A stretch of DNA of 64,000 nt from an uncultured Bacilli bacterium (lineage in GTDB: Bacteria; Bacillota_I; Bacilli_A; RF39; UBA660). The stretch spans positions 73,845-137,844 of the forward strand of contig CAKONK010000001.1 in the NCBI GenBank assembly GCA_934097085.1, given 5' to 3'. The notes beneath the pieces were generated by a model, which saw only the letters and a program-made list of their open reading frames with translations, had not been told where the DNA came from and made no database searches. Shown piece after piece: positions 26,084 through 26,948 of the stretch. A program made the position numbers and the translations under genes. Position 1 is the stretch's first letter. Every line of letters starts with the position of its first letter.

Positions 26084-26117
26084 TTTTAATCACTCCTTTC
26101 TTTTTTACATTTTCAGT

Positions 26118-26198
26118 TTGACAGATGGTAAACGTATATGGTAAAATGTTCTTATGGAAGCGATCCCACTGCTTGTGCAGAGGGTGTCGCTTCTTTTT
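26118..26198 (+). ncRNA. Mini-RNA unit 1 of 3 (promoter + hairpin + U-tract)
   Basis: TTGACA 26118-26123, TGgTAAAAT with -10 at 26142-26147, hairpin GGAAGCGATCCCACTGC-TTGT-GCAGAGGGTGTCGCTTC 26157-26192, then TTTTT. Confidence 0.6.
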
Positions 26199-26202
26199 AT
26201 AT

Positions 26203-26288
26203 TTGACAAACAGTAAACACATATGATAGAATGAATTTACGGAAGCGATCCCACTGCTGTATGCAGAGGGTGTCGCTTCTTTTTTTAT
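26203..26288 (+). ncRNA. Mini-RNA unit 2 of 3
   Basis: TTGACA 26203-26208, TGaTAGAAT with -10 at 26227-26232, hairpin GGAAGCGATCCCACTGC-TGTAT-GCAGAGGGTGTCGCTTC 26241-26279, then a T-run. Confidence 0.6.
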
Positions 26289-26371
26289 TTGACAGACAGT
26301 AAACTTTATGATAGAATGAATTTACGGAAGCGATCCCACTGCTGTATGCAGAGGGTATCGCTTCTTTTTTT
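26289..26371 (+). ncRNA. Mini-RNA unit 3 of 3; U-tract ends 13 nt from the stop codon of the convergent 187-aa ORF
   Basis: TTGACA 26289-26294, TGaTAGAAT with -10 at 26312-26317, hairpin 26326-26364 (GGGTATCGCTTC 3' arm), T7 26365-26371. Confidence 0.6.
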
Positions 26372-26384
26372 ATGTCTTAATGCA

Positions 26385-26948
26385 TTATTTTCTTTTATAG
26401 ATACCTAGTAAATCATTATCTCTTTTGACAATTATATAATTTAAATCAGTTTTAAATTTAAATAAATGATTTAAGTTTTCATTTATTAACTCATCGGTCA
26501 TATTACTATTATTTGTAACATCCATTATAAATAACTTCGCTTGTTTAGTTATTAAATGGTCAAAGGTGTATTTACTAGCTCCCCTTTTTATTTCTTTTAA
26601 ATCTAATGGTTCAGATAAGAAATTATAATCTGCACTTAATATATAGTTATCCTCACATATTTCAAATCTGAGTTCAACTTTACCTCCAATAGTGTTAATT
26701 AACCAAAATGCTACATTTATTTCATTATTTCTAAAATTAAACTTATTTTGATTATTAAGTTTATAAGTTTTTCCATTAACAATAATTTCTTTAGCAAATG
26801 ATATATTATGATTATTAGGAACTGTAAATAATAGAAAATTTTCTGTAACATCTTTATAAATATTAGAACTTTTTGAAAGATTTCTTAATTTAGATTTAAA
26901 ATAATATTTCATATTTTCTTTTCTTATGCTGTATAAATTATTTTGCAT
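26385..26948 (-). CDS. Hypothetical 187-aa protein, possible PD-(D/E)xK-fold nuclease
   Basis: E..VAFWL..GG....SADY-x11-DLKEIK spacing fits an E...D...(D/E)xK nuclease core; this is inference only. Weak SD. A paralogous pseudogene lies at 10419-10989. Confidence 0.35.
   Translation of the reverse strand: MQNNLYSIRKENMKYYFKSKLRNLSKSSNIYKDVTENFLLFTVPNNHNISFAKEIIVNGKTYKLNNQNKFNFRNNEINVAFWLINTIGGKVELRFEICEDNYILSADYNFLSEPLDLKEIKRGASKYTFDHLITKQAKLFIMDVTNNSNMTDELINENLNHLFKFKTDLNYIIVKRDNDLLGIYKRK

Follow-up and report, generated by a model that had tools for sequence, protein, structure and literature searches.

The 3′-overlapping type I toxin-antitoxin (TA) pairs of Firmicutes include txpA/RatA, bsrG/SR4, bsrE/SR5, and yonT/SR6, together with RNAI/RNAII of the Enterococcus par locus. 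In Escherichia coli, symE/SymR and the prophage-encoded ralR/RalA place a nuclease-type toxin under a small antisense RNA. Polymorphic toxins, including the MuF toxins of phages, are assumed to be checked by small immunity proteins that are encoded just downstream of the toxin gene. RalR/RalA is cited in PMC5576092. The same source lists the cd13442 (Bp1026b CdiA-2) domain among the toxin modules of the MuF polymorphic toxins of temperate phages and gives a downstream "small ORF" (open reading frame) for 89% of MuF toxins (PMC5576092). Here we describe a locus in a 64,000-nucleotide (nt) stretch of DNA from an uncultured Bacilli bacterium of a low-GC gut lineage (GenBank assembly GCA_934097085.1, contig CAKONK010000001.1; the whole stretch is called the window), where three tandem genes for a predicted hairpin RNA converge on the stop codon of a gene for a 187-amino acid (aa) protein with a CdiA_C-type nuclease domain. 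In the cd13442/CdiA_C branch of Firmicutes and phages, the conserved downstream partner is apparently a tiny RNA gene that annotation has missed or overwritten with spurious ORFs. The RNA partner is the new element, and the toxin domain family is already known. A literature search, in which subscription journals were thinly covered, turned up no account of an RNA that partners MuF/CdiA_C toxins.

Three RNA units converge on a CdiA_C-domain gene

Positions 26117-26373 of the window form one tandem array with a period of 85, 3.0 copies, and 89% matches (Tandem Repeats Finder). The array consists of three head-to-tail units of ~85 bp that each contain a near-consensus promoter, an imperfect hairpin, and a U-tract (Table 1). 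This is the arrangement described by an initial annotation made from the letters alone, and its −35 positions, spacers, extended −10 elements, and hairpins with U-tracts were all recovered. The promoter spacers of units 1, 2, and 3 are 18, 18, and 17 nt, the −10 elements are TAAAAT, TAGAAT, and TAGAAT, all three carry the TG extension, and the gap between −10 and hairpin is ~8 nt in each unit. Promoter and terminator calls throughout this work are consensus-based. A promoter scan of positions 25700-27300 returned the three unit promoters as the top three sites, each with a consensus score of 11/12. The window hairpin, GGAAGCGAUCCC-A-CUGC / GCAG-A-GGG-U-GUCGCUUC, has a folding energy of −24.6 to −25.2 kcal/mol (z −5.1 to −7.4; 0/200 shuffles as stable) and is followed directly by a run of T5-T7. 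The 17-mer of the 5′ arm, GGAAGCGATCCCACTGC, occurs three times against 0.01 expected. The units look like complete plus-strand transcription units, and from these sequence features we infer transcription of an RNA of ~45-50 nt.

Table 1. Coordinates of the toxin genes, RNA units, and adjoining features in the window.
Feature	Coordinates	Strand	Description
RNA unit 1	26118..26200	+	−35 TTGACA 26118-26123; TGgTAAAAT with −10 26142-26147; hairpin 26156-26193; T-tract 26194-26198; covariance model 68.8 bits
RNA unit 2	26203..26286	+	−35 26203-26208; TGaTAGAAT with −10 26227-26232; hairpin 26241-26279; T-tract 26280-26286; covariance model 66.9 bits
RNA unit 3	26289..26371	+	−35 26289-26294; TGaTAGAAT with −10 26312-26317; hairpin 26326-26364; T-tract 26365-26371; covariance model 66.2 bits
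Stand-alone toxin, 187 aa	26385..26948	minus	residues ~25-187 are a CdiA_C/cd13442-type PD-(D/E)xK domain
87-aa ORF	25820..26083	minus (toxin strand)	good ribosome-binding site; just past the RNA units, 302 nt downstream of the toxin
Fourth RNA unit, diverged	10333..10410	+	TTGACA 10333-10338; 17-nt spacer; TGcTATAAT (−10 10356-10361); hairpin 10371-10405; T-tract 10406-10410 (U5); covariance model 53.3 bits
Toxin-domain paralogue, frameshifted, N-terminally truncated	10419..10920	minus	40% identity; remnant of a phage MuF-toxin gene
Degenerate copy of phage tRNA-Pro(UGG)	10264..10332	minus	alignment to L047-type phage tRNA-Pro

The T-tract of unit 3 ends at 26371, leaving the 13 nt noted in the initial annotation between it and the toxin stop codon (26385-26387, minus strand). 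No U-tract stands behind any of the hairpins when they are read directly on the minus strand, which supports the view that the units are not the terminator of the 187-aa ORF. A covariance model run over the 64-kb window with filters off found four sites only, at 53-69 bits, with a next best score of 18.5; the reverse strand of the same hairpins scored only 12-16 bits. The fourth site is the diverged unit at 10.3 kb. The 187-aa ORF is the only one of the 75 window ORFs of at least 80 aa with a convergent strong promoter, hairpin, and T-tract downstream, and the count for the other 74 is zero. The GC content of the window is 25.5%, and the pattern of four units is well beyond chance. Rfam covariance models gave no match over the units at the gathering threshold or at E ≤ 10, and none at E ≤ 1 over eight related loci that include the phages 315.6 and SMP.

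The 187-aa ORF has a weak ribosome-binding site, and its product had been proposed to carry a PD-(D/E)xK core. The profile search and structure prediction suggested in the initial annotation placed the protein in the CdiA_C family with a nuclease fold. Residues 106-177 match Pfam CdiA_C (PF18451) with 27.1 bits (gathering threshold 26.6) and an E-value of 4.9e-6. This score is marginal; family profile, motifs, and fold carry the CdiA_C assignment. A word-indexed protein search gave only homologues that are at least 82% identical, and an exhaustive HMMER search of representative proteins was needed to reveal the family, which comprises 136 toxin-domain homologues. They are either stand-alone proteins of ~170 aa or carry the domain at the C terminus of proteins of 400-1160 aa. 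Eight long homologues were scanned; CdiA_C is present in 8/8, with up to 69 bits, and a Phage_min_cap2 or Phage_Mu_F N terminus in 7/8. The MuF fusion is seen in representative proteins P0016, P0019, P0021, P0040, and P0046, in the phage contig L047, and in phage 315.6.

Among 122 homologues, conservation is 96% for E76, 99% for D107, 86% for D116, 97% for K118, and 96% for Q136, and the window protein has all five residues. D107 lies within a P/A-D-Y motif, and D116-x-K118 and Q136 complete the PD-(D/E)xK constellation. The family profile matches Protein Data Bank (PDB) entry 4g6v_A with an E-value of 0.003; a single-sequence PDB search with the 187-aa toxin gave nothing meaningful. The AlphaFold (AF2) model of the toxin has a predicted local distance difference test (pLDDT) score of 90.4 and a predicted soluble α/β nuclease fold. 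The top Foldseek match to this model is again 4g6v_A (probability 1.00, 120 columns, template modeling score 0.61 on the target), and the next match has an E-value above 1. 4G6V is the PD-(D/E)XK toxin CdiA-CT of Burkholderia pseudomallei 1026b, which cleaves the acceptor stem of tRNA-Ala (PMC9086364, a review), and other toxins with this fold cut the T-loop or have Zn-dependent DNase activity (PMC9086364). Sequence, motifs, and fold place the 187-aa ORF in a known family of polymorphic-toxin domains, and homology points to a putative toxin, most probably a tRNase that resembles CdiA-CT of B. pseudomallei 1026b. No Pfam or PADLOC match points to a ToxN/AbiQ fold for the protein, and NCBIfam and PADLOC scans of the toxin, the 87-aa ORF, and the neighboring 158-aa ORF had no matches.

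No MuF domain is present in the 187-aa ORF. Its gene is flanked by Tad pilus genes and a GGDEF operon rather than by phage head genes. This copy of the toxin is chromosomal, has lost the MuF part, and is placed like a TA toxin. Three close relatives of the window toxin (P0010 of L004, P0007, and P0011) have differing N-terminal regions, one of them DUF6583, which are joined at about residue 56. Cassette swapping of this kind is expected of polymorphic toxins; some of the joins may be assembly chimeras.

The RNA gene recurs at related toxin genes

A convergent promoter-hairpin-U-tract gene stands at the toxin stop codon in ~25 distinct lineages, of which truly independent ones are fewer than the loci counted. 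The RNA lies 0-20 nt from the stop codon or overlaps it, whatever the host or the N-terminal fusion. A search for related loci with a narrow toxin alignment gave 4 genomes. In orthologous loci from at least four species, the toxin gene is separated from the next gene by 2-4 units; their hairpin is nearly invariant, and the promoter spacers and leaders drift. More diverged toxin homologues have a convergent RNA of other sequence (L005, L007, L013, L079, and the phage loci L012 and L014). The L005 toxin is 52% identical and its convergent RNA overlaps the stop codon; the L007 toxin is 40% identical and has an unrelated hairpin that overlaps the stop codon. The L013 hairpin has the pattern CCYC-A-CUG/CAG-A-GGG in common with the window.

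A toxin-domain alignment search yielded 22 viral contigs, and essentially every locus among them has a sigma-70-type promoter, a hairpin, and a U-tract. The promoters score 11-12/12 in most of these loci, the GC-rich hairpins measure 33-71 nt, and the U-tract abuts or overlaps the toxin stop codon. A few viral loci score below the promoter threshold; when inspected, these have either an extended −10 or a near-miss. The toxin domain is present in 41 Streptococcus phages of an annotated collection. The unit was found in 5/5 isolated phages inspected (Streptococcus pyogenes 315.6, Streptococcus suis SMP, Streptococcus pneumoniae IPP24, Streptococcus oralis Javan345, and Bajarodcaudo virus 4); in 315.6 and SMP, the RNA overlaps the stop codon of the toxin gene. 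Four intact MuF genes without the toxin domain, taken from loci where a scan with the whole P0019 protein matched the MuF part only, served as controls and have no such RNA unit. Among the toxin homologues found, L006 (824-1333) alone lacks a convergent RNA, and it has lost three catalytic residues (the equivalents of D116N, K118V, and Q136R); the 3′ end of its gene faces the terminator of a convergent RNase HII gene instead.

Searches were also started from the RNA. A degenerate hairpin pattern found one genuine unit in the viral collection, beside a toxin gene, and six chance matches in GC-rich coding DNA. The same pattern returned 43 metagenome stretches, and in 32 of them the hairpin converges on a toxin homologue. 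The remainder include four copies that lack a promoter and lie 110 nt upstream of a further toxin homologue with a different convergent RNA of its own, four solo copies, one chance match, and one copy interrupted by a contig end.

Twenty-five distinct RNA sequences were aligned to the structural model, in which 94.9% of cells are paired and which 0/500 shuffles equaled. Seven of the 15 pairs changed on both sides (e.g., C-G to U-A, 13 versus 11), and sliding the pairing partners cuts the paired share to 40-68%. In 23/25 lineages the RNA strand gives the more stable hairpin, with a mean difference of 6.6 kcal/mol, and this strand specificity comes from the G·U pairs. Across the family, the predicted RNA is ~45-75 nt long and nearly all hairpin. 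GGUC occurs in the 5′ arm in 12/25 lineages against 9.7% expected, a count over lineages that are phylogenetically non-independent. The 5′-arm GGUC often pairs with a GGUC in the 3′ arm to form tandem G·U pairs, as in phages 315.6, SMP, and Javan345, in L024 and L037, and in the 10.3-kb unit. An A·A mismatch between CCC/GGG and CUG/CAG is shared by the window, L013, and L023.

Other resemblances of the RNA were considered. The 3′ arm and tail (e.g., GGGUCAUCCUCCUUCUUU in 315.6) match the 3′ end of 16S rRNA, GGAUCACCUCCUUUCU, at a mean of 9.9 of 17 positions versus 8.6 in control terminators; mimicry of the 16S rRNA 3′ end by the 3′ half of the RNA was not adopted, as this excess over control terminators is small and post hoc. 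The 5′ arms of the 25 distinct RNAs are Shine-Dalgarno-like, a weak and post hoc observation. A by-eye comparison of the hairpin with tRNA-Pro and with tRNA acceptor stems gave nothing convincing. Perfect short palindromes stand exactly at the predicted RNA start in several phages, AAGATATCTT in L028-L036, L029, and L039 and GTAATTAC in L014, L023, and L038. They could be operators, in which case the RNA would be regulated rather than constitutive in those phages. In phage 315.6 (L094 ~2385-2500), the toxin strand carries a small hydrophobic ORF, MFIWQMVLVALGVLVLILIVGIAAIAVKSIIAELKKEG, just past the RNA promoter; its ribosome-binding site overlaps the RNA −35 region, and the annotated start of SpyM3_1432 falls inside the RNA gene. 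L012 has a GC-rich, apparently structured stretch (~3200-3450) with no ORF called in the AT-rich 450-nt gap between the toxin/RNA unit and a scaffold gene, which may be a further non-coding RNA.

The initial annotation had pointed to the same pairing of gene and RNA at 10.3-11.0 kb of the window, and the pairing does recur there in decayed form. The hairpin of the fourth unit is GAAGUGGUCCC-A-CCG / CGG-A-GGGGUCACUUC, and the toxin paralogue on which it converges has a frameshift near 10600 and no start codon. Phage contig L047 has an identical hairpin beside an intact 536-aa ORF with a C-terminal toxin-domain match. This ORF lies downstream of 475- and 509-aa ORFs, which by our reading occupy the terminase/portal position of head clusters. 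The L047 RNA promoter adjoins a tRNA-Pro(UGG) gene, and intact tRNA-Pro(UGG) genes stand behind the RNA promoter on the toxin strand in L022 (2067-2220), L024 (2076-2152), L027 (2077-2153), and L047 (950-1026). The identical hairpin and the degenerate tRNA-Pro shared with L047 identify the 10.3-kb locus as a decayed phage fragment in which the RNA unit is still intact. A tRNA-Pro beside the RNA gene is limited to one phage subfamily. The phage tRNA-Pro could mark an integration or recombination site, hint at the toxin target, or be a resistant replacement tRNA; its use as a mark of the toxin target or of an attachment site was not adopted, given its presence in one subfamily only. The degenerate copy in the window is 170 nt from the host's own tRNA-Pro (10016-10092, plus strand), and L022 also encodes an unusual tRNA-Gly(ACC). 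Abutting the phage remnant is a P-type ATPase ORF (11045-12757, minus strand) that starts just before the DKTGT phosphorylation motif and is thus apparently truncated at its N terminus. The phage fragment may have come with, or caused, a deletion at the ATPase gene.

Candidate roles of the RNA

The RNA is very probably a functional partner of the toxin domain, as antidote or regulator, judging from the conservation and placement of its gene. The initial annotation had suggested an undescribed TA-like module of RNA and protein, and that suggestion is reinforced by the convergent RNA in ~25 lineages and its absence from the controls. More tentatively, we read the window locus as a two-part toxin/RNA-antitoxin module in which the RNA acts antisense on the 3′ end of the toxin mRNA. 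Antisense action is the single most likely mode, direct neutralization of the protein by the RNA is a close rival, and the modes are not mutually exclusive.

In the antisense mechanism, the toxin would be a cytoplasmic, stand-alone copy of the nuclease domain. The three tandem genes, with strong constitutive sigma-70-type promoters, would give rise to an abundant RNA of ~45-50 nt made up of a hairpin and a U-tail. With the RNA genes running toward the toxin gene up to its stop codon, the RNA would have perfect complementarity to the stretch of toxin mRNA that follows the stop codon, and in many relatives to one that spans it. Pairing may begin between the U-tail of the RNA and the A-tract of the mRNA and proceed hairpin against hairpin. 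The duplex would lead to cleavage and 3′-to-5′ decay of the mRNA, or to a block of termination, and toxin synthesis would be off as long as the RNA is made. The RNA is presumed to be short-lived, and toxin would be made once its transcription stops. The 3′-overlapping type I systems act in this manner. A cis-antisense role is favored by the convergent position at the stop codon, which does not vary with host, RNA sequence, or N-terminal fusion.

Several observations weigh against this antisense reading. The RNA overlap in the window lies wholly inside a hypothetical 3′ untranslated region, and an RNA that is almost wholly stem with a 4-5-nt loop is a poor initiator of antisense pairing. The GGUC element, the tandem G·U pairs, and the A·A mismatch are kept far past the needs of a terminator or a cis-antisense RNA. 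For MuF toxins that are presumed to enter as injected protein, an antidote that acts at the mRNA level would leave lysogens unshielded. The window protein barely exceeds its Pfam cut-off, and the 87-aa family, which is confined to the window lineage, always adjoins the toxin and RNA genes and could supply a protein immunity factor. Solo units with no toxin gene nearby in the contig occur in L059, L082, L088, and L063, the last without a clear promoter; they may be orphan antitoxins. The L088 solo unit (2870-3030) has a 23-bp direct repeat, AATAAAGATACTATACTAACAAT, on both flanks, which suggests insertion or recombination.

A somewhat doubtful alternative is that the hairpin RNA binds the toxin protein, in a type III-like manner or as a decoy, either as an inhibitor or as a sacrificial mimic of the toxin's helical RNA substrate, such as a tRNA acceptor stem. 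Such an RNA would neutralize existing toxin protein, MuF toxin injected by a superinfecting phage included, and convergence would be compact linkage only. The RNA motifs fit this alternative well, being kept while the toxins are only 30-45% identical. The UGGUC/GGUCA tandem G·U pairs extend from Streptococcus phages to the window, CCC-A-CUG/CAG-A-GGG with its A·A mismatch is conserved, and the GGUC excess in the 5′ arms and the nearly all-stem architecture point the same way. The nearest solved relative of the toxin cleaves helical RNA, the acceptor stem of a tRNA (PMC9086364), and polymorphic-toxin logic demands protection against the delivered protein (PMC5576092). Phage MuF toxins of this type are followed by no conserved immunity ORF among the loci compared, the RNA differs among toxin subfamilies as immunity factors do, and strong promoters with 2-4 tandem copies suit a stoichiometric inhibitor. 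However, this alternative leaves the constant convergent position at the stop codon unexplained, the hairpins of L007, L012, and IPP24 are quite different and motif-free, and the type III antitoxins described so far are repeat arrays that undergo processing and lie upstream of a ToxN-fold toxin, unlike the arrangement here.

In a specific form of this alternative, which we hold to be rather doubtful, the RNA is an immunity factor. The hairpin would bind the PD-(D/E)xK domain directly through the tandem G·U (GGUC/GGUC) element, perhaps as a substrate mimic, and would protect lysogens of Streptococcus and gut-Firmicute phages from the MuF toxin of sibling phages. The three-copy array of the window would then be a domesticated toxin/RNA-antitoxin pair.

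The ORFs downstream of the toxin bear on whether a protein could take this role. Across 16 loci no ORF family is conserved after the toxin gene, and the first downstream ORFs that are convincing by size or known function begin 145-390 nt past it. These next genes are mutually unrelated, and the only detectable similarity is between two scaffold-like proteins; from their translations, we take several to be scaffold-like and others to have unrelated phage or host functions. The 87-aa ORF of the window is possibly a lineage-specific immunity protein or merely the first gene of the following GGDEF operon. It is distinctly unlikely that this protein is the true immunity factor in the window lineage and the RNA units accessory, serving bicistronic processing, the toxin:immunity ratio, or insulation. 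Its good ribosome-binding site on the toxin strand directly after the units, its size and lack of a family match, which are typical of immunity proteins, and its constant place beside toxin and RNA, which persists when nrdDG replaces the Tad genes upstream, are in its favor. On the other side, nothing similar follows the toxin at the 10.3-kb locus, in L005, L007, L013, or L079, or at phage loci, where the RNA is the sole conserved partner, and its position is equally explained by a conserved 87 aa-158 aa-GGDEF operon. The AF2 model of the 87-aa protein has a pLDDT of 90 and every fold match has an E-value above 1; PDB sequence and fold searches gave no significant match, and 4G6V, which contains CdiI, was absent among the 50 matches listed. 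The block of toxin, RNA units, 87-aa, 158-aa, and GGDEF genes is kept in L099-L102, where nrdD/nrdG lie upstream in place of the Tad pilus genes (27271-31700 in the window), and the L100 toxin is broken into two pieces of 88 and 55 aa.

A highly improbable account gives the units no dedicated function and makes them generic intergenic promoter/terminator repeats, a small mobile element, or bidirectional terminators that are chance neighbors of the toxin gene: solo copies without a toxin (in L088 between direct repeats), promoter-less copies that are seemingly plain terminators (L065/L079 group), and unit numbers that vary from 2 to 4 between strains are what such elements might show, but just four copies occur in 64 kb, each at a toxin homologue, the arrangement recurs with unrelated hairpins in the ~25 toxin lineages and is absent at toxin-less MuF genes and the 74 other window ORFs, near-consensus promoters are conserved together with the hairpin, and the hairpin is strand-asymmetric with compensatory changes.

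If the RNA is an antidote, a class of nuclease toxins with a 3′-antisense (or RNA-binding) partner would be added to the TA repertoire, and the search for immunity to phage-borne toxins would change. The idea would be testable in tractable carriers, namely the prophages of S. pyogenes MGAS315/MGAS5005, phages SMP and IPP24, and prophages of Streptococcus agalactiae and Streptococcus equi. If the RNA is an immunity factor that binds the toxin, it would be the first such factor of a polymorphic toxin that is not a protein and would define an RNA-protein TA class beyond ToxN. The strong promoter, hairpin, and toxin form a compact module that could be used as a counter-selection or containment device.

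Comparison with described systems

The module is outside the described type I class, because its toxin is no membrane peptide, and outside type III, because of its toxin fold, its gene order, and the lack of a precursor. By analogy, it may work like either. Like the 3′-overlapping type I systems, it has a small, putatively constitutive RNA gene that runs toward the toxin gene, so that its RNA would be complementary to the toxin mRNA at the 3′ end, and those systems, too, are often prophage-borne in low-GC Gram-positives. Their toxins are membrane peptides of <60 aa, whereas a soluble nuclease domain of 160-190 aa, often fused to a 400-aa phage head protein, takes that place in the module. The RNA described here is also only ~45-75 nt long, overlaps the ORF by 0-20 nt, and can be encoded in tandem units that each have their own promoter and terminator. 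symE/SymR and ralR/RalA have unrelated toxin folds, RNAs that overlap the 5′ end or coding region, and Proteobacteria as hosts, and lack the link to a polymorphic-toxin domain seen here.

The type III systems ToxIN, CptIN, and TenpIN resemble the module in their tandem direct-repeat RNA, their nuclease toxin (an endoribonuclease in their case), their association with phages, and possibly in RNA-protein binding. Their toxins have the ToxN/AbiQ fold in place of PD-(D/E)xK. Their repeats lie upstream on the same strand and form one precursor that is cut by the toxin, whereas the units here lie downstream, are convergent, and have separate promoters and terminators.

The toxin domain itself, by profile, catalytic residues, and predicted fold, is that of the MuF polymorphic toxins with cd13442/CdiA_C and of the 1026b CdiA-CT/CdiI pair. 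Most cd13442/CdiA_C homologues are MuF fusions in temperate phages, and the window copy lacks the MuF part. Published accounts of MuF toxins and CdiA-CT/CdiI place a protein immunity gene (the "small ORF" and CdiI) directly downstream of the toxin; here, no ORF is conserved at that position and a convergent RNA gene stands there instead.

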